From a virus (taxonomy: Duplodnaviria; Heunggongvirae; Uroviricota; Caudoviricetes), in IMG/VR virus record IMGVR_UViG_2526164633_000039: a stretch of 22,209 nucleotides of DNA. The stretch is one strand, 5' to 3'. The position numbers and the translations under genes are program-made. The notes beneath the pieces are model-generated. The model had not been told where the DNA came from. It was given only the letters and a program-made list of their open reading frames with translations, and did no database searches. Shown here piece by piece: positions 1-14,323 of the stretch (the first letter of the stretch is position 1; the number at the start of each line of letters is the position of its first letter).

Positions 1-1239
1 CTACTTGCTAACCACGAGCGGCAAATCCAGTGTTGGTGTGATTTTTGTTTTACGATCGTAAATCAACACCTGATTTTCTGTTTTATGCCCGCTGAAAATT
101 TGTTTGTCGCGACTGCTGCCTTCGTAATCTGAGATCCCCTTGGCTTTTATGTCGTGAAAATTACACCCGAACGGAACGCCAACTTTTTGCTCGGCTGCGC
201 GTTTAGCCTGATTCCACCAGTTATTCAGCGTTTTAGCTATGACTTTCCCGCCTTTGGTTGTATTGATCACATATTCGCATGTACAGGAAGATACATTTCG
301 GGCTAACTGGATCGCTGTACGTAATCGCGGTGACCATTCCTTGATTTGTTTGGTGCCGGTTTTGTTTTGCTCAATGTAGATCCCTTTATCCATAATATCC
401 TGCCATTTCAACTCAAGCACATCACCGAGTCTTGCCGCACAGAGATAGGAAATCTCCATTGCAATGCGTAACTGTGGAATTGCTTCCGCATATATCGCCG
501 CATACTGTTCATCGGTGATGTAAACAGTGCGGGCTTTAAGAGAGAATTTTCTGACTCCTTTGCATGGGTTATTCTTCACATACCCACGCTCATATCCCCA
601 CCCGTATACTCGACTCAGGCTTGCCAGTTCATGATTTGCCTGGGTCTTGCTCTCAAGCCCTCGTTTATCCATGAAAATTCTTACCTGCTCAGTTTTGACA
701 TTATCAGCAAGCACTTTTCCGAATACCATCAGCAACGCCTTCTGATGTTGTCGATAATCTTTTTGGGTTCGGGGGGCCAGTTCTGTAAATGCAGGGGAGT
801 CCATAAACATGTGCCATAATTTAGCTACGGTCATTATGTTGTGGAGTTTTGCTTTTTCCAGTTCATAATTTTGCCAGACTTTAGCTACGCTGGTTTTCCG
901 CACTCTTCCTAGCCCTATACTTCTTGTACTTCCTTCGGGTTTCCACACGTAACTGTAACCATTCGATCTAACCCGCGGTGGCAGTACATTATCTTTTTTA
1001 TTTTTCTTGGTCTTCCCATTGTTCAGCGCCTCAAAATCGGGTTCAGCAGAAACCAGTTCAGATGTTTTTGGCATCGTTGTCAGACCGTGTGGAATATCCC
1101 TGCGGAGAACTATGGGTTCGTTTTTAGGGCCGATTACAAATGGGATGCCGTGCAGTCTTAACTGGTGTTGCTGTTTTGTGTATCGCTCGTATTTCGTGAT
1201 CTCTTTAATCTCTGCTGGAGATAGAGTTAATTCGTACAT
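1..1239 (-). CDS. int: Phage integrase, tyrosine recombinase family
   Basis: Minus-strand ORF with stop at 1-3. Start chosen at the internal ATG at 1237-1239 (protein begins MYELTLSPAEIK) because the track's longer start at 1377 overlaps the upstream gene. The C-terminal half carries recombinase-like ARLGD, HDIKAKGIS and LIYDR motifs. Terminal position next to exo is typical of lambdoid prophages. Confidence 0.8.
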   Translation of the reverse strand: MYELTLSPAEIKEITKYERYTKQQHQLRLHGIPFVIGPKNEPIVLRRDIPHGLTTMPKTSELVSAEPDFEALNNGKTKKNKKDNVLPPRVRSNGYSYVWKPEGSTRSIGLGRVRKTSVAKVWQNYELEKAKLHNIMTVAKLWHMFMDSPAFTELAPRTQKDYRQHQKALLMVFGKVLADNVKTEQVRIFMDKRGLESKTQANHELASLSRVYGWGYERGYVKNNPCKGVRKFSLKARTVYITDEQYAAIYAEAIPQLRIAMEISYLCAARLGDVLELKWQDIMDKGIYIEQNKTGTKQIKEWSPRLRTAIQLARNVSSCTCEYVINTTKGGKVIAKTLNNWWNQAKRAAEQKVGVPFGCNFHDIKAKGISDYEGSSRDKQIFSGHKTENQVLIYDRKTKITPTLDLPLVVSK

Positions 1240-1306: not shown

Positions 1307-3778
1307 TTAAAAATCAGCCTGACTCGGGAGCAGTTTTTGCCAGATGGCTGAAACGTATTTCGCCTGGTAACGTGCATCGTTCAGAGCGTTATGGCGTTCA
1401 CCTTCGAATGGAATAGTCGTTCTTGCGTCGAAATCCATCACCAGTCCCAGAGCAACCATCGTTCTTACATCGCGATCATTGGTGTAACGCCACGGGCAGG
1501 GGATCCCCTGCCGTTCATATGAACGGCGTAAAATCACGTTGTCGAAAGTTGCACCGTTACCCCAGACCTGAACAAAAAATTCACCGGAGTTTTCGTCGAT
1601 AAATTCCCGCAATTGTAACAGTGCATCATCTAACGGGATTTCATCGGTCATAATGGCAGATTGCGCTTCGCGTGATTGCTTAAGCCACCATTTAATGGTG
1701 TCCCGATCAATGACTCCGCCAGCAGTTTCCAGATCAATAGTCTTACTAAATTCCGGTCCCATATCTCCGGTTTGCGGATCGAAAAATATTGCACCTATTG
1801 AGATAATCGGGGCATCAGGATTTTTTCCCATGGTTTCAAGGTCGATCATTAGATGGTCACACGTCCTGCTGGTGGATGTGATAACGTGATGACCGTTCAC
1901 CGTAATTAAGGGATCTGCCGTCTCGCCAGTTTCACTATCGCTGGCGTGATCCTGAGCGCTACCAGCATTCTCCTTGTGTGGATGTTCAGCGCCTTCCATT
2001 TCCTCCGGATCATTTTCCTGAACTTCAACCTGATTCTCTTCATCGAATGTTTCCTGGTATGTTGCGTCACCCATCACCGCGCCACAATCATGGCAGTTGC
2101 CACCACCGCTTTGACCGCAGGCGGTGCAGACTTTTTCCGGTTCCTGTTGCGCTACTGGCTCAGGTTGTTTCGTTTCTGGCTCGTTTTGTTGCGTATTTGG
2201 GCTGTTTTGTTCCGCTTTCTGGTCGTTCTGTTCCGATTCTTGCTGGTTCTGGTTTACAGAATCGCGGGTTTCCATCCCCTTTACCCATTTCGGATCATTC
2301 GGGTCGCTAATCCCTGCAACAAATTCTCCGCGAGAGGCAGCAAGCAACTTATCGGCGTCAGGCTGGCTGATATTGGCTGCCTGCATAATTTTGTTTACTT
2401 CGTCAGCGGTAACTTTTACCGGCTCTGGTTGTGCGGTCGTGTCAGATGCACCAGTATTTTGTTGTGAACCTGAGTATGTACTGTTTTTGCGGGCGAAATA
2501 TTCTTCTTTCGTGATTTCAGTAGCCCCGGCAGCCAGTGCCTTATCCAGACCAGAAAGTTTGTTTGCGCGACCGTATTTTTCGCCATCCTTGTCGGTGAAG
2601 AGGAAGTAGAACGGCCCCTCACGCTCTACAGATGGTTCGACTTCCACTTTGCATTCGGTTTTTTCGTTGTCCGGAATTGCCGTTTCCACTGCATCAGTTT
2701 CTGGTACTGACGACGAGAGAGTATCAGTTGCGCTCTGATTTGTTCCTTCATCTTCAAACACGCCCTTTGTAGTCAGGTATTCAGTAATGTATTTGTTCAG
2801 TGCCACAGGGTCTTTGTGAATGTCGATCGGACGTTCACGGACAAGGCCAAAAATAGTCTGGCGGTCGTAGCGAAGGGCATCAGGCTGTTTGCGCATTGAT
2901 GTCGAGATACGCTTCCAGTCTTCGCGGTCGTTGTCGATAACTTCATTTTTTGCCCAGCGATGGATGCTGCCGTCAATGTTTCCGGCATCCACATCACCAG
3001 GCCAGAGAGCGTAGGCCAGTTCGTCATCCAGTGTTTTCCATGTCTGCTTGTATTCGCGATGAATGGCAGCAATGACCAGGCTGATTTTTCCTGTTGAATT
3101 TTCAGTGTGCTGTTGATTGACTCTGGCGCGGGCGAGATCAACAACAGACGTGTATTTTCCGGTTTCCTTGCGTTCACCTTCGCGACGTTTTTTCCAGATG
3201 CGCATCTCTGCCTGAATTTCGGGCCATTTGGCACCAGGCTTACATTTATGCTTAACCCACCCGATGGCATGCAGCTTAAGCTCCGGATACATGGCGTTAA
3301 CTTCTGGCATTTTCATCAACGCTTCAACGATATGTCCGTCGAATGTTGCCATGTCTTCCTGCAACAATTCCTGTGCGCTAATAACCATATCAACGGTGAT
3401 GTTTTCACATGTGTCGAACTTAACCATGACAGCGTTCTGTACTTCAGGGGCCAGCTTGTCAAAAGTGACGTTCATCGGATCGGATTCAGTCTCAACCGGG
3501 ACAAAGGAAGCAGACTCCTCATCCCAGCGGTTTTCCTGCATATATTCAGCATCCCAGGAATCGAGGGCAGGGCGGGGTATGCCGGGTTTATCCTCACAGA
3601 CAATAAATTTATAAGCGCAGTCCTGAGCTGCAGGGAATTGCTCCAGAAATTGCCAATGAAATTTTGCGCGTGCGCGACGCTCATCACCAGCTTCAATGGC
3701 AGTGGCCACCGCAACAGCGCTATCTTCTTTTATGGCCTGTTCATCAGGAATAGCAGCGCAAATAAAGACTTTACTCAT
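1307..3778 (-). CDS. Large phage exonuclease (823 aa) with a C-terminal DnaQ-like DEDDh 3'-5' exonuclease domain, a Cys4 cluster and an acidic low-complexity linker
   Basis: ATG at 3776-3778 with GAGGT about 9 nt upstream. C-terminus shows [12 protein letters not shown] and HNALNDARY motifs typical of DEDDh exonucleases. [16 protein letters not shown] suggests a zinc ribbon. Sits between int and the dicB operon, as in EHEC-type lambdoid prophages. Confidence 0.65.
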
Positions 3779-3870
3779 TTTGTTTTACCTCATTACAGAT
3801 TTAAGGGTGAACAAATCCCTGCCATTGCTGGCATATAAGAATGAAACCGGATATTTATTACGGAACTGTT

Positions 3871-4062
3871 TTAAAGACCTGCCGGGATTTCGTTATTATC
3901 CTGGTGAATAACTTTATCGACCGGGTAACAGTTACCGGGAATTTTCTGTTCGGTTGCTGCAGTCACACACTCCTGCATTGTCCTGTGAACACTGACTGCA
4001 ATATCAACTGGCTCTCCGGAAACAAGAAAAACTGTCAGAACAAGTGCAAATGCTGTATTCAT
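3871..4062 (-). CDS. ydfD: Small protein (63 aa) with N-terminal hydrophobic segment, YdfD-like (Qin prophage lysis protein) by position and size
   Basis: Start ATG at 4060-4062 overlaps the dicB-like stop as ATGA. Protein MNTAFALVLTVFLVSGEPVDIAV... Sits immediately downstream of dicB as in Qin. Name is from recollection. Confidence 0.5.
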   Translation of the reverse strand: MNTAFALVLTVFLVSGEPVDIAVSVHRTMQECVTAATEQKIPGNCYPVDKVIHQDNNEIPAGL

Positions 4063-4247
4063 TGCCAGCATCCTTTTTGTATCGGACGTAAACGGGCCAG
4101 CATTGAAAGAATGCATATTTTATTTAATAACTCCCGTTCGTGTTTTCTCTTGTTAATGGCATCTTCAGTAAATACAGGGTTACTGATAGTGACACCAATT
4201 TCAAAACAACCTTCAGACGTATTAACGTTTGGTAATAACGTTTCCAT
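4059..4247 (-). CDS. dicB: DicB-like cell-division inhibitor (62 aa)
   Basis: Internal ATG of track ORF 4059..4352 at 4245-4247, preceded by GAGGA. Protein METLLPNVNTSEGCFEIGVTISNPVFTEDAINKRK... matches my recollection of E. coli DicB. DicF lies just upstream. Confidence 0.65.
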   Translation of the reverse strand: METLLPNVNTSEGCFEIGVTISNPVFTEDAINKRKHERELLNKICILSMLARLRPIQKGCWQ

Positions 4248-4427
4248 TATCGCGTCCTCAACAATGAATTTTGTGATGCGATGCCTGGTGCCTCCAGGTG
4301 ACGTTAACCAGTTAACAATTAACGCCGGATACAGAGAATCCACCCATAACACTGTTTTTGGTTTTAACTGTTCCGCGTGCGCTCAGCCGCATTCACCACA
4401 TCACAAAATTCACTTTAAAAAGGGCGG

Positions 4428-4485
4428 CAGAGCAGTCACGGAGTAAAACTGATACCGCCAAACGTCACCAGAAAATTGATAACAG
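4428..4485 (-). ncRNA. dicF: DicF small regulatory RNA (ftsZ-targeting) with intrinsic terminator
   Basis: Reverse complement of 4433-4485 reads TTTCTGGTGACGTTTGGCGGTATCAGTTTTACTCCGTGACTGCTCTGCCGCCC followed by a T-run, matching the DicF sequence as I recall it. GGCGG...CCGCC forms the terminator stem. Confidence 0.65.
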
Positions 4486-4815
4486 AGGGCGTTGCAGCGG
4501 GGTTGTCACTTAAGCGTATGGTCAACCTGACAACCCGGTGTCCTCAACGGGGGAAGGAATAACCCCGCCATACTTACCGCCGCGCCATTTCGCGGATTGC
4601 CACAACCGGAAGCGCACGGTCGACGAAAATTTAACGACAGGCTATCTATGAACCAGCTACCTCGCCGTGCGCTTTCGCGTTATGGTCTGACTTTTCAGGG
4701 AAATATCCTTTCAGTAAACTGTCAATGCCGGATGCTCACCCATGTCCGGCGCACGCACTCCACCTCACCCGTGGAGAACTCCTTAATTACCAACCTTAGC
4801 TTCGTTGGTTAGCTA

Positions 4816-5034
4816 TTAACGCGGGTATGTAATCATTCTGGCAATGCTTAATGCCGCTGCTTTTTCCAGCCTGGTGATATCCTGCTCCAGAGCGGACAGA
4901 TTTTCAGCCTGCTTAGCCCTGGCTTCATTGGCCCATTTCAGATCCTGCGCTGCATTAATTTTCTGGCGCATCCACTCATAAAGTTCATCATCGGTATAGT
5001 CTGGCGAGATGATGACGGGTTCTCGTTTCTGCAT
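4816..5034 (-). CDS. Hypothetical 72-aa protein (YdfC-like by size and position)
   Basis: Track ORF with GAGGAA RBS upstream of the ATG at 5032-5034. Third small gene upstream of dicF in the dicB-type operon. Confidence 0.45.
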   Translation of the reverse strand: MQKREPVIISPDYTDDELYEWMRQKINAAQDLKWANEARAKQAENLSALEQDITRLEKAAALSIARMITYPR

Positions 5035-5063
5035 ACTGATTCCTCGCGGTGCTGCTTCGCTTA

Positions 5064-5192
5064 TCAGCCGTTAGATTTTGCCGAGCTGGAAAGCGCCTGT
5101 TTAAACTCACTGAAGCTGAGAGCTTCTTCGCCTTCGGCAAGGCCTTCGAAGTATTCTTCGTAAGCCTTTTCCATGATTGTGTCGAAATCCAT
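5064..5192 (-). CDS. Hypothetical 42-aa acidic protein (YdfB-like by size and position)
   Basis: Not in the track (<60 aa). Hand translation of the minus strand gives MDFDTIMEKAYEEYFEGLAEGEEALSFSEFKQALSSSAKSNG, with an AGGTGA RBS before the ATG at 5190-5192. Fits tightly between neighbouring genes. Confidence 0.4.
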   Translation of the reverse strand: MDFDTIMEKAYEEYFEGLAEGEEALSFSEFKQALSSSAKSNG

Positions 5193-5193
5193 A

Positions 5194-5349
5194 TCACTCA
5201 CCTGAGTTTCTTTCCAGCCAGCGACGGGCACCATTTTCGGTTTTAAACGTTTTGCTTCTGGTATACGTCATCGCGGTAAACGTGCCGTCCTGGTTGGGAA
5301 ACACGCCGCATACCAGAGATTCGTTGTTGCCAAGATCGATAGTATTCAT
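5194..5349 (-). CDS. Hypothetical 51-aa protein (YdfA-like by size and position)
   Basis: Internal ATG at 5347-5349 of track ORF 5194..5403 with GAGG 6 nt upstream. Protein MNTIDLGNNESLVCGVFPNQDGTF... First gene after the operator-bearing intergenic region. Confidence 0.45.
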   Translation of the reverse strand: MNTIDLGNNESLVCGVFPNQDGTFTAMTYTRSKTFKTENGARRWLERNSGE

Positions 5350-5429
5350 GCTGACCTCATTTCCCCTTAACGCCGGGGTAGCGGAACTGTTTGCTGAGAA
5401 CACCGTGCGGTGTCTTGGTGGAGATTAAT

Positions 5430-5481
5430 TTAGAATAACCTAACAAATGTAGCAAGTATTTTTGTTAGATTGGTCTAACAA
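5430..5481. promoter_or_regulatory. Two palindromic operator-like sites (TTAGAATAACCTAACA and TTGTTAGATTGGTCTAACAA) upstream of the early-left small-gene operon
   Basis: 5462-5481 is a perfect 8+4+8 inverted repeat sharing the TGTTAG/CTAACA half-site with the sites at 5927-5991. Consistent with a repressor-controlled promoter of the dicB-type operon. Confidence 0.4.
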
Positions 5482-5516
5482 AAAGAGTGAGGGAATCTAA
5501 GTATCTGAAAGGAGTG

Positions 5517-5924
5517 TTATTTTATTGATTTGTTTTTACGTGCTTTAAGCATTTCTTCGAAGAGTTTATTGAAATTCTCTACTCTTGCGCGCATTTCAGA
5601 CAGTAAGGCTTCCTGCTCGGAGGAGGGAAGAGCATCGAATAATTCGATCAATTCTTTGTGGCTGGGAGTTAACTCGGTTTCCACATGAAGTTCTTGTGCT
5701 GGCACTGGTGCCTTGTCTTCGTCACCAAACATTAGCCATGTAGGCGAGCACTTCAGCGCATCAGCTAAAGCAAATAACCGCTTCCCGACCGGTTGGGTTT
5801 CGTCTCTTTCCCATTGTGAAATTGTGACGTGAGCTACCCCAGCGAGGCGTGCAGCTTCTCGTTGTGTTAGGCGTAATTCTTTTCGTCGTGCCAGAACTCG
5901 CTGGCCTAGGGTTCTTGTATCCAT
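5517..5924 (-). CDS. dicA: XRE-family HTH repressor, DicA/CI-like (135 aa)
   Basis: ATG at 5922-5924. HTH signature LTQREAARLAGVAHVTISQWERDE. C-terminal CSPTWLMFGDEDK and EMRARVENFNKLFEEMLKAR resemble DicA as I recall it. Divergent from a Cro/DicC-like gene. Confidence 0.7.
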   Translation of the reverse strand: MDTRTLGQRVLARRKELRLTQREAARLAGVAHVTISQWERDETQPVGKRLFALADALKCSPTWLMFGDEDKAPVPAQELHVETELTPSHKELIELFDALPSSEQEALLSEMRARVENFNKLFEEMLKARKNKSIK

Positions 5925-5926
5925 AG

Positions 5927-5991
5927 TTAGGTAATTCTAATTTTTCTTGACTTAGGTATCCCGCGCACATTACTGTTAGGAATATCTAACA
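5927..5991. promoter_or_regulatory. Divergent promoter/operator region with palindromes TTAGGTAATTCTAA (5927-5940) and TGTTAGGAATATCTAACA (5974-5991)
   Basis: Inverted repeats with the same half-site as 5430-5481, lying between the divergent repressor and cro-like genes. A TTGACT -35-like hexamer sits at about 5947-5952. Confidence 0.45.
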
Positions 5992-6004
5992 AGAGGGGGC
6001 TTTG

Positions 6005-6232
6005 ATGCTTAAAGTTGACGCAATTACTTTTTTTGGCAGCAAAACAAAACTTGCCAATGCCGCAGGAGTGAAACTGGCAAGTGTTGCTGCATGGGGGGAA
6101 CTGGTTCCTGAAGGTCGCGCGATGCGCCTGCAAGAGGCATCCGGCGGGGAACTTCAGTACGACCCCAAAGTTTATGACGAATATCGTAAGGCAAAGCGGG
6201 CGGGGCGGTTGAACAATGAAAATCACCCCTGA
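6005..6232 (+). CDS. dicC: Cro/DicC-like small DNA-binding protein (75 aa from ATG; TTG at 6002 possible)
   Basis: AGAGGGGG RBS 5-8 nt upstream of the ATG at 6005. Divergent from the repressor. Sequence MLKVDAITFFGSKTKLANAAGVKLASVAAW... is YdaS/DicC-like. Confidence 0.6.
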   Translation: MLKVDAITFFGSKTKLANAAGVKLASVAAWGELVPEGRAMRLQEASGGELQYDPKVYDEYRKAKRAGRLNNENHP

Positions 6233-6737
6233 ACAGGTTTGTGAGGCTCTGGATGCCTGGGTATGCCGACCAGGAATGACACAGGAGCAGGCGACGATAT
6301 TAATCACGGAAGCATTCTGGGCTCTGAAAGAACGCCCGAACATCGATGTTCAACGCGTCACGTTTAATGATGGCGAGGTTGATCAACGGGCGTTGGGCGT
6401 TAACCGGGTGAAGATATTCGAACGCTGGAAAGCTATCGACACCAGGGATAAGCGGGAAAAATTCACGGCGCTGATTCCGGCAATTATGGAGGCTATCCGG
6501 ATCAGCGATTTCAGGTTGTATTGTGAAATTACTGACGGAAAAAGCATTACGTACATGATCGCCGGGTTAAACAAAGAATATGGTGATGTGGTGGAGTCCG
6601 GGCTGCTTTTTGCGGATCCATCTGTTGTGGAACGTGAGACTGACGAGCTTATAGAAAAAGCTATTGCTTTCAAGCATGCGTATCGTCAGCAATACCAACA
6701 AAAAGCTGGATGGAATTATGAGCCTTCTTTTTGCTGA
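6216..6737 (+). CDS. Hypothetical 173-aa protein in the cII position (possibly YdaT-family)
   Basis: Track ORF overlapping the end of the dicC-like gene. Family assignment is a weak recollection only. Confidence 0.4.
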   Translation: MKITPEQVCEALDAWVCRPGMTQEQATILITEAFWALKERPNIDVQRVTFNDGEVDQRALGVNRVKIFERWKAIDTRDKREKFTALIPAIMEAIRISDFRLYCEITDGKSITYMIAGLNKEYGDVVESGLLFADPSVVERETDELIEKAIAFKHAYRQQYQQKAGWNYEPSFC

Positions 6738-7683
6738 ACGCCCACTGGTTATAAACACACAGCTTGCGATGAAGATTGGCTTAAATGAAGCCATTGTGTT
6801 GCAGCAGTTGCATTACTGGTTGAGAGATACCAGTTCCGGTATGGAATGTGACGGGGTTCGCTGGATTTATAACACAACAGAACAATGGCTGGAACAGTTC
6901 CCGTTCTGGTCAGAGTCAACGTTAAAACGCGCATTTGCAAGTCTGAAAACGCTGGGGCTTTTGCGTTGCGAAAAGCTCAACAAATCAAAGCGTGATATGA
7001 CTAATTTTTACACGATTAATTACGAGAGTGAGCTTTTAGATGGTGGCAAAGTGAGCGAATCCATCAGGTCAAAATGCGCCGCTCCATCGGGTCAAAATGA
7101 CACGATGGAAGAGGTCAAAATGGCACGCTCCATTGGTTCAAAACGACCCAATGTCATCGGGTCAAAATGGCCTGATGATCTTACAGAGAATACAACAGAG
7201 ATTACTACAGAGAATAAAAACACTTCTCGTCCGGAAGCTTCGCAACCGGACCCGCAGACGGCTGAACAGGATTTTTTAACCCGACACCCTGACGCGGTTG
7301 TGTTCAGTGCGAAAAAACGCCAGTGGGGAAGTCAGGAAGATTTGGCGTGCGCACAGTGGATCTGGGGACGAATCGTGAGTCTTTACGAGCAGGCTGCCAG
7401 CGATGATGGCGAGATCACGCGACCGAAAGAACCAAACTGGACCGCATGGGCCAATGACGTGCGCACAATGCGGATGCTGGATGGCAGAAGCCACAGACAA
7501 ATTTGCGAAATGTTTGGTCGGGTACAGCGAGATCCATTCTGGGTAAAAAACATCATGAGCCCGTCAAAGCTTCGCGAAAAATGGGACGACCTGGTCATCC
7601 GCCTGGGGCGTTCACCTGTACAGTGTTGTGTGAATCATATTTCTGAACCGGATACCGAAATTCCGCCTGGTTTCAGGGGATAA
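6718..7683 (+). CDS. Replication initiator, phage O-like, with origin iterons embedded in the coding sequence
   Basis: Start chosen at the ATG at 6718 (MSLLFAERPLVINTQLAMKIGLNEAIVLQQLHYWL, winged-helix-like N-terminus); alternative starts at 6664 and 6676. Contains five about 17-bp repeats at 23-bp spacing followed by an AT-rich tract, as in lambda O/ori. Confidence 0.6.
   Translation: MSLLFAERPLVINTQLAMKIGLNEAIVLQQLHYWLRDTSSGMECDGVRWIYNTTEQWLEQFPFWSESTLKRAFASLKTLGLLRCEKLNKSKRDMTNFYTINYESELLDGGKVSESIRSKCAAPSGQNDTMEEVKMARSIGSKRPNVIGSKWPDDLTENTTEITTENKNTSRPEASQPDPQTAEQDFLTRHPDAVVFSAKKRQWGSQEDLACAQWIWGRIVSLYEQAASDDGEITRPKEPNWTAWANDVRTMRMLDGRSHRQICEMFGRVQRDPFWVKNIMSPSKLREKWDDLVIRLGRSPVQCCVNHISEPDTEIPPGFRG
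7060..7169. repeat. Iteron array: five copies of about TCCATCGGGTCAAAATG at 23-bp periodicity (candidate replication origin)
   Basis: Copies start near 7060, 7083, 7106, 7129 and 7152 (TCCATCAGGTCAAAATG, TCCATCGGGTCAAAATG, GAAGAGGTCAAAATG, TCCATTGGTTCAAAACG, TCATCGGGTCAAAATG). An A/T-rich ACAGAGAATA-type tract follows at 7176-7240. Confidence 0.65.
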
Positions 7684-8499: not shown

Positions 8500-9531
8500 A
8501 TGTCTATTAATCCTAAACTTAAGCGTATCGCGCGACGCTATCCAGCGTTATTCCAATATGAGTCCCCCTATATGGCAAGAAAATTAATAATATTCGGCAA
8601 CGGTCTCGGTATGGCTTTAGATCCTGCTCACTTCTCCTTAGACAGAGCGTTGGAAGAAATTTGGCATCGCCCCAATTTTTTAAAAGATATCCACAAGCAA
8701 CTTATCGAGCGTTGTCTTCAGCGGCAAGGTCCACCAGAAGGAGAACATGAGTTGGATACCCTTCACCAGGCTGTCACATATTGTAAAGCTCTTGCTCAAA
8801 TTGGAGAGGGGAACGTGCATTGGCTTACTGAAGATGGACTAAACTTCCCCAAAATTACCGCCACTTATATTCACAAAGTTGCAACCAGGTTGCATAATTA
8901 CGATAAAGGTTTGCCACAAAGATTCGAAAATGCGCTTGTGGAGTTTGTAAAGAACACACACTCACATATCGCGACATTAAACTATGACAAATTATTATAC
9001 AATTCATTCATAGATAATGATATATTCAACGGGTATGATGGGGTTTTAGTTGATGGGATGCTAAGCCACGGATTTTCCTCTGCAGCGCTCGAACGGAAAT
9101 ACAATCGTAGGTTTGGTTATTATTTGCACTTGCATGGTTCACCACTATTTATTAATCAGCATGAAAATGTTTTAAAACTTTCACGCTCACAACTTACTCT
9201 TGACATAGATGAACCTAGTGAGCATATAGTGTTAACTCATATAAAAAGAAAACCGTCAGTTATAGCAGCATCTAATGTTCTTTCTACGTACTGGGATTAT
9301 TTGCAGTTTGCATTATTTGAATCAGAAGAAATAATATTGTTTGGTTACTCTGGTCTCGATATTCACCTTAACCTGCTTATTCGACCTTACCTAACCTCTA
9401 AGCCTTTAAGAGTAATTGAGTGGAGCGGTGCTGGTGAACAAAACGCTCGTGAGATATATTGGAAAAACCAGTTGAGACGGGAAGTTACTGTAATTAGGTT
9501 GGATAACATCACTGATTTTATTGATTGGTAG
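8500..9531 (+). CDS. SIR2-like (sirtuin-fold, SIR2_2/DUF4020-type) protein, 343 aa; candidate NAD-consuming anti-phage defence effector
   Basis: Motifs read directly from the translation: glycine-rich IIFGNGLGMA (aa 30-39), IATLNYD (Asn161), YLHLHGS (His210/His212), ILFGYSGLDIHL (aa 279-290). These match the order and spacing of defence-associated SIR2 domains. Coding GC is far lower than the flanking prophage (about 32% in sampled 60-nt stretches). Confidence 0.65.
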   Translation: MSINPKLKRIARRYPALFQYESPYMARKLIIFGNGLGMALDPAHFSLDRALEEIWHRPNFLKDIHKQLIERCLQRQGPPEGEHELDTLHQAVTYCKALAQIGEGNVHWLTEDGLNFPKITATYIHKVATRLHNYDKGLPQRFENALVEFVKNTHSHIATLNYDKLLYNSFIDNDIFNGYDGVLVDGMLSHGFSSAALERKYNRRFGYYLHLHGSPLFINQHENVLKLSRSQLTLDIDEPSEHIVLTHIKRKPSVIAASNVLSTYWDYLQFALFESEEIILFGYSGLDIHLNLLIRPYLTSKPLRVIEWSGAGEQNAREIYWKNQLRREVTVIRLDNITDFIDW

Positions 9532-9691: not shown

Positions 9692-9902
9692 TTTTATATT
9701 GGCGAGGTGACGGGAGTTAAGTAGAATTGCTGCGGGTGCTTGAGGCTGTCTGCCTCGGGCATGCCACCGTAAGGCAGACAGAGAAAAGCCCCAGTTAACA
9801 TTACGCGTCCTGCAAGACGCTTAACATTAATCTGAGGCCCAATCTATGCTTCACAAACGTAGGTTAGCCTCTTACGCGCCGAAAGGCAAGGAGAAGCAGG
9901 CT

Positions 9903-10058
9903 ATGAAGCAGCAAAAGGCGATGTTAATCGCCCTGATCGTCATCTGTTTAACCGTCATAGTGACGGCACTGGTAACGAGGAAAGACCTCTGCGAGGTACG
10001 AATCCGAACCGGCCAGACGGAGGTCGCTGTCTTCACAGCTTACGAACCTGAGGAGTAA
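9903..10058 (+). CDS. hokD: Hok/Gef-family type I toxin (51 aa), HokD/RelF-like
   Basis: MKQQKAMLIALIVICLTVIVTALVTRKDLCEVRIRTGQTEVAVFTAYEPEE has the Hok TM segment and conserved Cys. An in-frame upstream extension from 9846 is mok-like. A perfect 10-bp leader hairpin lies at about 9745-9780. Confidence 0.8.
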   Translation: MKQQKAMLIALIVICLTVIVTALVTRKDLCEVRIRTGQTEVAVFTAYEPEE

Positions 10059-10273: not shown

Positions 10274-10525
10274 ATGATGAACATCGAAGAACTGCGTAAA
10301 ATTTTTTGTGAAGATGGCCTCTATGCTGTGTGCGTTGAAAATGGAAATATTGTTAGTCATTACCGCATTGTGTGTTTGCGAAAGAATGGGGCTGCGTTAA
10401 TTAATTTTGTGGATGGTCGAGTGACAGACGGATTTATCTTGCGCGAAGGTGAGTTTGTCACTTCATTACAGGCACTGAAAGAGATCGGAATAAAAGCTGG
10501 CTTTTCTGCTTTTTCAGAAGAATAA
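10274..10525 (+). CDS. rem: Hypothetical 83-aa protein, Rem-like (Qin prophage rem neighbour of hokD) by size and position
   Basis: GGAAGGA RBS before ATGATG at 10274. Lies immediately downstream of hok as in Qin. Identity rests on recollection and synteny. Confidence 0.45.
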   Translation: MMNIEELRKIFCEDGLYAVCVENGNIVSHYRIVCLRKNGAALINFVDGRVTDGFILREGEFVTSLQALKEIGIKAGFSAFSEE

Positions 10526-11611: not shown

Positions 11612-11641
11612 GTAAGCGGCTCGCCAGAACCGTATTGATAT

Positions 11642-13213
11642 TTACTGAGAGGTCAGATCAACTTTCCAGGGCAACAGATCGCGTACCCGGTTTGCCGGCC
11701 AATCCTGGATATGCTCAATGACGTAACGCAGCCATTTTTCTGGTTCCACATTGTTCAGACGGCATGTGCCGATCAGCGAGTACAACACCGCCGCATGTTC
11801 GCCACCGCTGTCGGAACCCGCGAACAGCCAGTTTTTCCGGCCTACGGCCACTCCCCGTAAGGCGTTCTCTGCGATGTTGTTGTCGATTTCCACCCAGCCA
11901 TTACTGCAGTACACGTTCAGGCCATCCCACTGTTTCAGCAGGTATGCGAACGCTTTTGCCGTATCCGAGTGACGCGACAGTGTTTTCATCTGAGTCTGTA
12001 TCCAGTCATACAGTGACTGCATCAGTGGCGCAGCTCTGGCTTTTCTTGCCGCCAGACGCTGTTCTGCTGTACATCCCCGGACTTCTGCCTCTATGGCATA
12101 CAGTTCACCGATACGCTGCAGGGCTTCCGTGGTGATGTCGGTGGGCACTCTTGCATGCACATCGTGGATTTTTCTCCGGGCATGAGCCATACACGCGGCT
12201 TCCGTTATTCTGCCGGATTCGTATAACACCCGGTAACCACCGTAAGCATCGGCCTGAAGCACACCGCTGTAACCGGCCAGATGATTTTGTGGATGGATAC
12301 CTTTCCGGTCCGGTGAGTACGCGAACCAGACCGCCGGGGGCATTTCCGAACCGGCGTTACGGTCATCACGGACGTAGACCCACAGCCGGGCGGTCCGGGT
12401 TTTACCGCTGCCCGGCTCCTGGACCGGGACGGGGATATCATCAGCATGGACTTTACCGGGCATCAGCACATACTGGCGCAGGACGTCATACAGCGGCTCC
12501 AGCAGTTCAGCAACGGCACCTGTCCAGCGCCCCAGCGTGGCGCGGCTCAGCTCCACGCCCTGGCGACGGTATATTTCTGACTGGCGGTATAACGGCAGAT
12601 GGTCTGCATATTTCCCGGTAACAACATGGGCCAGAAGCCCCGCTCCGGCATAACTGCGTGCAATGGGTTTTGAAGGTACTGTTGCCTGCACGATATGGTC
12701 GCACCGACAACAGGCCAGTTTCGGACGTTGTGTTTCGATAACCTTAAAGGCGCTGCTGATAAGCTCCAGTTGCTCTGACACATCACACCCCAGAGGACTG
12801 AGGTCACCACCACAGGCCGGGCAGCATTCCTCTTCCGGCCGGATGACCCGGGTTTCACGGGGAAGTGAGGCCGGTAACGGTTTACGGGCTGAAGACTGGC
12901 GCAGGGCGGATGGCAGTACCGGGTCATATTGCTCACCCAGCGTTTCCGCCATTTCTTCCTGAAGTGCGCTGATTCGCTCCTGTGCTTCCTGTATCTGCCG
13001 TTCGGTTTTAGCGCGAAGTTTTTCTGAGCTTTTACCGAACTGCATGCGCTGCAGTTTCGCAACCAGCGCCTTCAGCCGGTTGATTTCGGAAGCATAAGCC
13101 GCCACCCGCTGTGAGAGCAGGCGGTTGTATTTCGCCATCTGGCGGATGGTGTCCTGTTGCGTCTGCAACAGTGCCCGCAGGCGGGCATTCTCATGAGCAA
13201 GTGAGGTGTCCAT
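11642..13213 (-). CDS. tnpC: IS66-family transposase TnpC (523 aa)
   Basis: Intact ORF with N-terminal coiled-coil/leucine-zipper-like region, a Cys-rich zinc-finger region (CPACGG...CCRCDH) and conserved IS66 transposase core. Confidence 0.9.
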
Positions 13214-13232
13214 ATCCTCACTTTACAACGGG

Positions 13233-13580
13233 TTATATGCGGATGCCAGCGCGTTCCGTTCGTTTCGGGTGCTTCCAGTCGATGCCTTCGAGAAGCATGG
13301 ACAACTGAGCCGGAGTAAGGTGAACCTTTCCATCGCGGGTGACCGGCCAGACGAAGCGGCCCCGCTCCAGGCGTTTGGTGAAGAGGCACAGTCCGTCACT
13401 GTCAGCCCACAGCACTTTTATCTGGTCACCCCGGCGTCCGCGGAAGATGAACAGATGCCCGGAGAACGGGTCATCCTTCAGGACGTTCTGAACTTTTGAG
13501 GCCAGGCCGTTAAAGCCATTTCGCATATCGGTGATACCGGCAACCAGCCAGATACGCGAACCGGCAGGGAGAGATATCAT
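13233..13580 (-). CDS. tnpB: IS66-family accessory protein TnpB (Orf2, 115 aa)
   Basis: MISLPAGSRIWLVAGITDMRNGFNGLASKVQ... is typical IS66 Orf2. Start overlaps the tnpA stop. Confidence 0.9.
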   Translation of the reverse strand: MISLPAGSRIWLVAGITDMRNGFNGLASKVQNVLKDDPFSGHLFIFRGRRGDQIKVLWADSDGLCLFTKRLERGRFVWPVTRDGKVHLTPAQLSMLLEGIDWKHPKRTERAGIRI

Positions 13581-14230
13581 CAGTGGCTGCTCCCTTTCAT
13601 TTCGCGGATAAGTGTCTGTAATAACGCCGGTGTCAGTTCACCTTTCAGCCTGAGAGTTCCGGCCGGCAGAACCAGCTCGCAGCACAGACTGTCTGGCAGT
13701 GTATTTATCTGTTCAGGTATCTGCACTGGTGCCGGGATTTTATTATCCGGCTCCGGAGTTAACGTCACGGGAAGTAGCGATGTTTCATGTTCGCCGGGCG
13801 GTTGCAGGCCACCGTTACGCCAGAGATGCCGCCAGTTAAAGAGCAGGTTATCGTTAATTCCATTCTCTCGAGCTATTTGTGCGACACAGGCACCGGGTAA
13901 AAGAGTTTGCTGAACCAGTCTCCATTTAAACTCCGGTGAAAATCGGTTCCGGCGGGGTTTCTCTGCTTTCACAGGCTGAGTCACGGTCGGGGCTGAAGGG
14001 TATCGCCCCGGGAAAAGAGCCCGGGCCAGTTGCCCGCAGGAATATTCACCGGAAAGAGGCCAGTCAGTGAATACCTGGTGAAATCGCCTCACCAGAGAAA
14101 AAATGGCGGTTTTGCTGACACCAGTCTGCGCAGAAATGCGCGGGTACGACAGTGACTCGTCAAATCTCAGCTGTAGCACACGCAGGATCAATTCTGGATT
14201 ATCTGCCAGTACCGCTTTTCGTGCATTCAT
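13580..14230 (-). CDS. tnpA: IS66-family accessory protein TnpA (Orf1, 216 aa as drawn; a shorter internal start is possible)
   Basis: First ORF of the element, with an HTH-like N-terminus. ATG at 14228-14230. Confidence 0.75.
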   Translation of the reverse strand: MNARKAVLADNPELILRVLQLRFDESLSYPRISAQTGVSKTAIFSLVRRFHQVFTDWPLSGEYSCGQLARALFPGRYPSAPTVTQPVKAEKPRRNRFSPEFKWRLVQQTLLPGACVAQIARENGINDNLLFNWRHLWRNGGLQPPGEHETSLLPVTLTPEPDNKIPAPVQIPEQINTLPDSLCCELVLPAGTLRLKGELTPALLQTLIREMKGSSH

Positions 14231-14323
14231 CTTAAATGTCCTTTTACTGCGAAAATGGACATTAGTATCGGAAACAGGAAAGGGAGGCGAAAGACGGTTT
14301 AAATGATGCGCTTACGTTGATCC

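Follow-up and report, generated by a model that had tools for sequence, protein, structure and literature searches.

Background

This locus raises the question whether a DicF small RNA and a DicB-type division inhibitor lie in the early-left operon of a phage, and what such an arrangement adds to what is known from E. coli K-12. The original prediction had described DicF followed by a 62-aa DicB-like and a 63-aa hydrophobic YdfD-like reading frame, in a pL-like operon beside exo and int of an apparently complete phage backbone, with a role in host takeover during induction. The window, i.e. the whole stretch of 22,209 nucleotides analysed here, almost certainly carries the known dicBF operon of a Qin-like lambdoid prophage of E. 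coli in uninterrupted form, the analogue of the lambda pL early-left operon.

The presence of the dicBF operon in prophages and working phages is already known, and the operon is very common. It was reported in many E. coli prophages by Balasubramanian et al. 2016 (PMC5069750), and dicB, dicF, dicAC and rem were noted in the functional phage mEp460_ev081 by Ragunathan et al. 2023 (PMC10448788). We found the 1-kb dicF-dicB-ydfD locus matched in 4745 of 5426 complete E. coli genomes, at a median of 2 and up to ten places per genome. A match to the dicF segment of at least 97% identity is present in 22 phage records, among them phages obtained from virions or by induction. The only lead worth keeping is the spacer between dicF and dicB, which is related to the STnc100 RNA family and could matter more than the identification of dicBF.

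Identity of the operon

The features of the locus are collected in Table 1. On the minus strand the gene order is ydfA-ydfB-ydfC-dicF-dicB-ydfD, with dicF, dicB and ydfD at the distal end.

Table 1. Position and basis of assignment of the features discussed in the text (positions are those of the window)
Feature	Position	Strand	Basis
Fused Xis-like (DUF4224) and tyrosine integrase, 412-aa product	1-1239	minus	Pfam DUF4224 and Phage_integrase
Full-length exonuclease gene, 823 aa, ydfE-equivalent	1307-3778	minus	Pfam Rv2179c-like 3'-5' exonuclease domain, 1.3e-65
ydfD, 63-aa DUF1482 protein	3871-4062	minus	Pfam PF07358
dicB, 62-aa division inhibitor	4059-4247	minus	Pfam DicB PF05358, full length
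Structured spacer	4263-4414	minus	21-bp closing helix 4414-4394/4283-4263 enclosing three hairpins; core 4273-4404 related to STnc100
dicF, 53-nt sRNA	4422-4474	minus	Rfam RF00039 and identity to the K-12 lineage; terminator hairpin, then CUUUUU
Long predicted helix 5' of dicF	4600-4685	minus	MFE helices 4685-4679/4606-4600 and 4674-4665/4619-4610
ydfC, 72 aa	4816-5034	minus	Co-linear with annotated ydfC; about 98% DNA identity to Qin
ydfB, 42 aa	5064-5192	minus	Co-linear with annotated ydfB of the closest genome; about 98% DNA identity to Qin
ydfA, DUF1391, 51 aa	5194-5349	minus	Pfam DUF1391, 2.4e-28; about 98% DNA identity to Qin
Putative dicBp-like (pL-like) promoter	5427-5478	minus	-35 TTGCTA 5455-5450, 17-nt spacer, -10 TAAATT 5432-5427
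Operator-like sites TTAG-N6-CTAA, interval between repressor gene and ydfA	5430-5443, 5465-5478		Overlapping the operon promoter
dicA-like repressor gene, 135 aa, cI analogue	5517-5924	minus	Pfam HTH_3, 1.2e-14
Operator-like sites TTAG-N6-CTAA, dicA-like/dicC-like intergenic region	5927-5940, 5976-5989		pR/pRM analogue
dicC-like Cro-type regulator gene	6005-6232	plus	Pfam P22_Cro, 2e-13; divergent from the dicA-like gene
rem, antirepressor	10274-10525	plus	95% identical to Rem of the K-12 lineage

The three identities proposed at the outset were borne out, all by family matches far above chance. In a cmscan search of the whole window, DicF (RF00039; gathering score 48 bits) was found at 4422-4473 on the minus strand with 76.7 bits, an E-value of 1.3e-15 and model positions 1-52 of 52. 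DicB matches PF05358 with 127.4 bits (1.7e-37; gathering score 27), residues 1-62 covering profile positions 1-62, and YdfD matches DUF1482 (PF07358) with 88 bits (3.7e-25; gathering score 25). Both reading frames have the predicted lengths, and the dicB stop overlaps the ydfD start in ATGA as described. The position of DicF had to be corrected: strand and region (3871-4490, which holds the complete gene) were right, but the interval 4433-4485 given for it is 11 nt too high. No observation speaks against the identification of the operon.

The original prediction had also called for a comparison with dicF of K-12, and was to fall if no significant identity to dicF or dicB emerged. In a four-way alignment, dicF at 4422-4474 is identical in 53 of 53 positions to the Qin copy of a K-12-lineage (O16:H48) genome, both seed regions included, and the flanks on either side likewise agree at 100%. 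From the 5' UTR through dicF the DNA identity with Qin is about 98%, and it is about 97-98% over the full transcribed region. DicB is identical to its K-12-lineage counterpart in 55 of 62 residues (89%), the differences being clustered C-terminally (5 within the last 16 residues), and YdfD in 59 of 63 (94%). By analogy with K-12, where DicB diverts MinC to the septum and bars the entry of phage DNA that depends on ManYZ (PMC10448788) and YdfD is a lysis protein (PMC8835842), DicB is predicted here to block FtsZ rings in a MinC-dependent manner and to inhibit ManYZ. Two plus-strand ORFs, 3841-4446 (201 aa) and 4358-4513, were rejected as genes, being antisense to dicB, ydfD and dicF with their strong family matches.

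Control region

The repressor gene lies upstream in the same orientation, a Cro-type gene diverges from it, operators are found at both promoters, and the exonuclease, xis and int genes follow downstream. This layout identifies a pL-type early-left operon, and the proposed setting beside exo and int thus held. The motif TTAG-N6-CTAA occurs four times in the whole 22-kb window against 0.17 expected, a number reached in none of 100 shuffles, and its occurrences are confined to the two expected promoter regions (5430-5478 and 5927-5989). Four operator-like sites at just the operon promoter and the repressor/Cro intergenic region fit the lambdoid pL/pR layout.

The DicA-like repressor is 57% identical to DicA of the K-12 lineage, the C-terminal third being best kept, and the DicC-like protein is 83% identical to DicC. 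Judged from its sequence, the repressor is a heteroimmune variant. As expected of a heteroimmune relative, identity to the K-12 sequence begins only downstream of the promoter.

The promoter hexamers were placed by alignment to hexamer-like sequences at the same position of the K-12-lineage locus and are weak, with a score of 8 of 12. The latter are presumed to be dicBp, whose location was taken from the published description (5' of ydfA) and not from mapped coordinates. A consensus promoter scan of 3700-6300 did not call dicBp. The scan demands at least 9 of 12 hexamer matches and so excludes hexamers of 8 of 12, which means that this negative result is uninformative.

Rem relieves DicA repression in K-12 (PMC10448788). 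With a repressor that shares just 57% of its residues with DicA, the window may differ from K-12 in the inducing signals and in its control by Rem. Rem itself is conserved at 95% next to this diverged repressor (57%), a hint that the part of DicA-type repressors which it recognises is the conserved C-terminal one.

The DicF RNA

The 3' hairpin of DicF (GGCGGUA...UGCCGCC, followed by CUUUUU) has an MFE of -15.9 kcal/mol and corresponds to an intrinsic terminator and Hfq-binding module. It was not called by a consensus terminator scan of 3700-6300, where the rule allows loops of at most 8 nt; the DicF loop is longer, so its absence from the scan carries no information.

A check of the pairing with ftsZ had been suggested as well. 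Over a long stretch that crosses the Shine-Dalgarno sequence, the ftsZ 5' leader of E. coli is complementary to the 3' half of DicF, as expected, and the predicted duplex (ftsZ -29 to +25, Shine-Dalgarno included) has an energy of -38.5 kcal/mol, but 133 of 1000 shuffled DicF sequences gave a duplex at least as stable. As the energy is no better than that of shuffles, pairing here rests on identity to the K-12 RNA, whose interaction with ftsZ was validated by compensatory mutations (PMC5069750). On this ground we accept that DicF of the window would pair with ftsZ as K-12 DicF does.

Two predicted helices coincide with reported processing sites. A 190-nt DicF precursor has been reported, and RNase III has a role in making its 5' end (PMC10448788). 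Counted back from the 3' end at 4422, this 5' end falls at 4611, inside the predicted helix upstream of dicF. The 3' end of the reported 72-nt DicF falls at 4403, within the 21-bp closing helix of the spacer. The helices around 4611 and 4403 are plausible RNase III substrates, as far as structure prediction goes.

A structured spacer between dicF and dicB

The RNA of the dicF-dicB spacer has a secondary structure backed by covariation, and it is a relative of the sRNA STnc100. Against the Rfam model of STnc100 (RF02076) it scores 34.6 bits (E 3e-5, full model length) at a relaxed threshold, and its homologues at four other loci score 32.9-40.4 bits. Because the score is under the gathering score of 47, we describe the spacer as a relative of the family and do not file it as a member. 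The window also contains a true STnc100 copy, which scores 139 bits and lies in its late region at 17564-17754.

Diverged copies of the spacer stand 27-42 nt 5' of the start codons of several genes. They were found upstream of kilR or kil in Rac-type and Stx-type phages, upstream of tciA/terB in P7, D6 and a P1-like plasmid, and upstream of an ORF in an unannotated Klebsiella phage. The lambdoid copies are preceded by a DicF-like terminator hairpin and the P1-like copies by tRNAs.

The consensus structure that we derived from 11 diverged copies has one closing helix and three hairpins, with a variable insert. Of its 32 pairs, 8 show compensatory changes, and 98.3% of cells are paired. None of 500 shuffles reached this, and slid controls gave at most 2. 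Furthermore, a covariance model built solely from spacer and leader copies (R1) retrieves true STnc100 with 57.7-60.6 bits and E-values of about 1e-13; in a search of 124 kb with this model nothing matched besides true STnc100 copies.

We tentatively propose, with nearly an even chance of being right, that the spacer is a conserved cis-acting structured leader of an STnc100/PasD superfamily. Together with the preceding terminator hairpin or tRNA it would form a portable module placed 5' of toxic or host-directed genes (dicB, kil, kilR, tciA/terB). Its closing helix would be an RNase III site at which transcripts reading through DicF are trimmed and the 5' end of the division-inhibitor mRNA is fixed, and with it the translation or stability of that mRNA. 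Our observations are a conserved structure and the fact that the reported 72-nt end falls inside it, and from these we infer gating by RNase III.

If this is true, 'sRNAs' of the STnc100 type would act as cassettes for processing and gating, in place of or in addition to regulating in trans. For a prophage RNA family of unclear role (PMC12370729), the spacer offers a testable function, namely RNase III processing and the gating of toxic genes.

As to novelty, the literature links STnc100 to PasD, and a preprint of the Storz laboratory on PasD/STnc100 nowhere mentions DicF or dicB. No mention of a link between the spacer and STnc100 was found in the literature searched, and the STnc100-like leader may be new. 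Faubladier & Bouche (1994) are reported to have described dicF-like sequences in Rac and other prophages, so that part of it may be old knowledge.

Integrity of the surrounding prophage

The description of the phage backbone as apparently complete could not be substantiated. The window spans only int to the start of the lysis cassette, the morphogenesis genes being outside it. An IS66-family element at 11613-14316, with ORFs for a transposase, TnpB and a TnpA-like protein and an 8-bp target duplication (GTTGATCC), interrupts a DUF968 gene, and a second IS66-family copy begins at 20603 directly after a ydfR-like gene and runs off the end of the window, at a place where the closest relative has a lysozyme gene. 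In addition, the Xis-like and integrase frames are fused: an A-run has five A here and six in the closest genome, where the genes are separate (the run here is 1 nt shorter). A complete (inducible) lambdoid prophage would have its replication, late-regulation, lysis and morphogenesis genes free of interruptions, and the window does not establish one.

The closest genomes share 99.4% identity over 80% of the window, and there the prophage adjoins yccA and the terminase is interrupted by an IS. IS66 elements in the relatives lie at other sites than in the window, so that they give no guide to the rest of its prophage. The main value of the window is that it exemplifies an ancestral, uninterrupted early-left arm with full-length exonuclease and integrase and a heteroimmune repressor.

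No defence system is called at a SIR2-like protein, PADLOC giving only weak matches (best E-value 3.8e-6, 24 bits) and none for the ORFs beside this protein.

Proposed mechanism and role

Sequence identity, gene order, operator sites and RNA structure come from the present analysis, and every functional step below is taken from experiments in K-12, done on nearly identical sequences (PMC5069750, PMC6832061, PMC10448788, PMC8835842). The DicA-like repressor would bind the TTAG-N6-CTAA operators at the operon promoter and keep the operon off. Repression would be lifted by the Rem antirepressor or by a flip of the DicA/DicC switch, as is the case for dicBp in K-12 (PMC10448788), giving a polycistronic RNA. 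RNase E and RNase III would process this RNA, with the 53-nt DicF set free by its own intrinsic terminator; in K-12 the 3' end of DicF is made either by this terminator (53 nt) or by an RNase III cut (72 nt) (PMC10448788, PMC5069750). DicF would then pair with the ribosome-binding region of ftsZ and with the xylR, pykA and manX mRNAs and block their translation, the repression of ftsZ being expected to depend on Hfq. For K-12, repression of ftsZ translation has been assigned to the 3' region of DicF and that of xylR and pykA to the 5' region (PMC5069750). Transcripts reading through the terminator would carry the structured spacer and then dicB and ydfD. DicB would bring MinC to the septum, so that FtsZ rings are blocked, and would also block ManYZ-dependent phage DNA entry, while overproduced YdfD would lyse the cell.

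The DicF match could be fortuitous or a degenerate relic that has kept a terminator hairpin but does not regulate, like the DicF-like hairpins upstream of kil in Rac-type and Stx-type phages; Rac-type loci do have a sub-threshold DicF-like hairpin (39.1 bits against the cut-off of 48) at the equivalent position. Here this reading is refuted by 76.7 bits and 53 of 53 identical positions, both seeds included, with a DicF that is functional in K-12, and we give it practically no credence. The locus could also be an inert relic, intact in sequence and never expressed in a decaying and silenced prophage. The two IS66-family insertions and the fused xis/int frame would agree with decay, as would the IS-interrupted terminase of the closest relative, and strong repression of the operon under laboratory conditions has been reported in K-12. 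Against it, no damage is seen in any of the six ORFs, in dicF, in the genes for the repressor, the Cro-like protein and Rem, or in the operators. The noncoding RNA segments, moreover, match fully or almost fully those of K-12, where expression and processing have been demonstrated; we regard an inert locus as improbable.

A role in host takeover during induction, as originally suggested, is plausible. The operon occupies the exact position of lambda kil under a lytic early-left promoter, and it is retained in phages isolated as virions. Both observations speak against the view that the selected role lies in the lysogen instead, where low or stochastic expression would provide superinfection exclusion, through the DicB block of ManYZ-dependent DNA entry, and metabolic tuning by DicF, the genes being host-benefit morons. 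To that view we assign a sizeable minority of the probability. The published function of dicBF in lysogens is superinfection exclusion (PMC6832061), and phage protection by DicB, a build-up of DicF in stationary phase and derepression that occurs spontaneously in about 1% of cells all point to the lysogen (PMC6832061, PMC10448788). The same holds for the fact that 4745 of 5426 genomes have kept the locus, often several times over, and that IS-broken prophages like this one have it too. The lysogenic and lytic roles are not mutually exclusive.

Comparison with known systems

Qin (Kim) of E. coli K-12 has the same order dicA-ydfABC-dicF-dicB-ydfD-exonuclease-int, with dicA/dicC-type regulators and rem laid out alike. 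It differs in its repressor (57% identity between the DicA proteins), which goes with a different operator and promoter sequence, and in its site, the closest relative of the window being integrated next to yccA. Furthermore, the window has a full-length exonuclease gene and an integrase gene, whereas the K-12-lineage copies are pseudogenes separated by IS2, the ydfE-equivalent being annotated there as a partial pseudogene, truncated beside the IS. The contrast with K-12 implied in the original prediction had already been published, for many E. coli prophages (PMC5069750) and for the functional phage mEp460_ev081 (PMC10448788).

The functional phages mEp460_ev081, Tritos, PhiR42_1 and HannyBb carry the 1-kb dicF-dicB-ydfD segment at 94-96% identity, while the records of the PPompW phages cover only 70% of it. 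In the functional phages, as in the window, the immunity region adjoins the operon on one side and exonuclease/xis/int on the other. In Tritos, DicF, dicB and ydfD are annotated in the same order, adjoining exonuclease, excisionase and integrase. Unlike the window, in which a partial prophage carries IS66 insertions, these records are complete genomes, and their immunity regions and integrases differ from those of the window (cI/Cro in Tritos).

Lambda kil and Rac kilR likewise encode small toxic division inhibitors in a pL-type operon, upstream of recombination or exonuclease genes. The kil gene of Rac-type and Stx-type phages is preceded by the same module of terminator hairpin and structured leader as dicB here. 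The proteins themselves are unrelated: DicB acts via MinC, and lambda Kil acts on FtsZ in a ZipA-dependent manner (PMC3961180).

With STnc100/PasD the spacer shares the closing helix, the three internal hairpins and the motifs UGGUGAAU and CACCnGGAGGCACCnGGCA. STnc100 has its own 3' terminator, which the spacer lacks, and lies in the late region after tRNAs, whereas the spacer lies in the early-left operon, 27 nt 5' of a start codon. In the lambdoid pL versions the closing helix is lengthened to 18-21 bp relative to STnc100.

Structured RNA elements

The spacer between dicF and dicB is, judged by covariation, a structured RNA related to STnc100 (Rfam RF02076), a prophage sRNA family. A model built from this spacer element retrieved true STnc100 copies, and elements of the spacer type were also found in other phage and prophage loci, both 5' of kil or kilR (L006, L008 and L013-L015) and 5' of terB/tciA or a gene for an SPFH-domain protein (L009, L011 and L012). 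The reported 3' end of the 72-nt DicF, which is made by RNase III, falls within the 21-bp closing helix of the spacer.

A DicF-like hairpin is present in one of these loci (L008, positions 1451-1506), a Rac-type prophage of E. coli B771, where it is placed directly 5' of the structured leader and kilR. It scores 39.1 bits and is thus below the DicF gathering score of 48 bits. Since its 5' seed region is different from that of DicF, this hairpin is probably a terminator only.

Additionally, partial dicF together with the spacer was found at 97.6% identity (matches H22, H87 and H109) in positions 249906-250152 of Aeromonas phage AP1 (MT713136.1, 254 kb). Such an identity to E. coli DNA is unexpected for the Aeromonas host of this phage. 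The copy is located close to the end of the record and may be the result of contamination or mis-assembly.

The late region of the window holds a bona fide STnc100 copy, placed directly after three phage tRNA genes and 5' of a DUF6645 gene; in Stx phages the same position is occupied by stx. The first of the three tRNAs is assigned to Met by ARAGORN, whereas the RefSeq annotation of the closest genome has tRNA-Ile. Presumably this tRNA is of the ileZ type, where the CAT anticodon is decoded as Ile once modified with lysidine.

Coordinates of features in the window
Feature	Position	Strand	Remarks
dicF-dicB spacer, structured RNA	4263-4414	-	covariation; related to STnc100
Iteron-like direct repeats, 4 x 23 nt (CATCGGGTCAAAATG...)	7062-7177	+	within ORF 6718-7683
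SIR2-like protein gene	8500-9531	+	weak matches: Pfam SIR2_2 1e-5, PADLOC Aga_SIR2 3.8e-6
hokD/sok-type type I toxin-antitoxin locus	9734-10058	+	116 bits to the sok family of Rfam; end of the hokD ORF at 10058
IS66-family element, first copy	11613-14316		transposase 523 aa, TnpB 115 aa, HTH ORF 216 aa
Three tandem tRNA genes	17239-17488	+	ARAGORN: Met(CAT), Arg(TCG), Arg(TCT)
STnc100 sRNA, bona fide copy	17564-17754	+	139 bits
IS66-family element, second copy	20603-22209		continues past the window end

Insertions and frame changes

The two IS66-family copies are 94-97% identical to each other. The first interrupts a DUF968 (ydfU-like) gene with a clean 8-bp target duplication, GTTGATCC, and is absent from the closest genomes. 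The second starts approximately 50 nt beyond the ydfR-like gene, where the closest relative carries a lysozyme gene.

An A-run at about 1003-1008 has one base fewer in the window (A5) than in the closest genome (A6), and the DUF4224 Xis-like and integrase frames are thereby joined as one ORF of 412 aa (1-1239, minus strand). The A5 run could be a homopolymer sequencing error, a real mutation inactivating or fusing the genes, or a slippery site.

Repressor, probable replication origin and variable slot

The DicA-like repressor (5517-5924, minus strand) has 57% identity to K-12 DicA, with the conserved portion being the C-terminal third, while Rem (10274-10525, plus strand) has 95% identity to its K-12 counterpart. 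From sequence comparison, a diverged repressor conserved in this third together with a highly conserved Rem hints at the conserved C-terminal region as the part of DicA-type repressors that Rem may act on, whatever the immunity type.

The ORF containing the iteron-like repeats gave no Pfam match, and phage Tritos has an annotated replication protein gene at the matching position. By analogy with lambda O, the repeats are probably a replication origin inside the initiator gene.

The SIR2-like gene, which may be defence cargo, occupies a variable slot with the replication genes on one side and hokD on the other. In this slot the K-12-lineage locus has relBE and flxA, and another relative has SMEK and methyltransferase genes. 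The hokD/sok locus is located 5' of rem, which is the same arrangement as in Qin.
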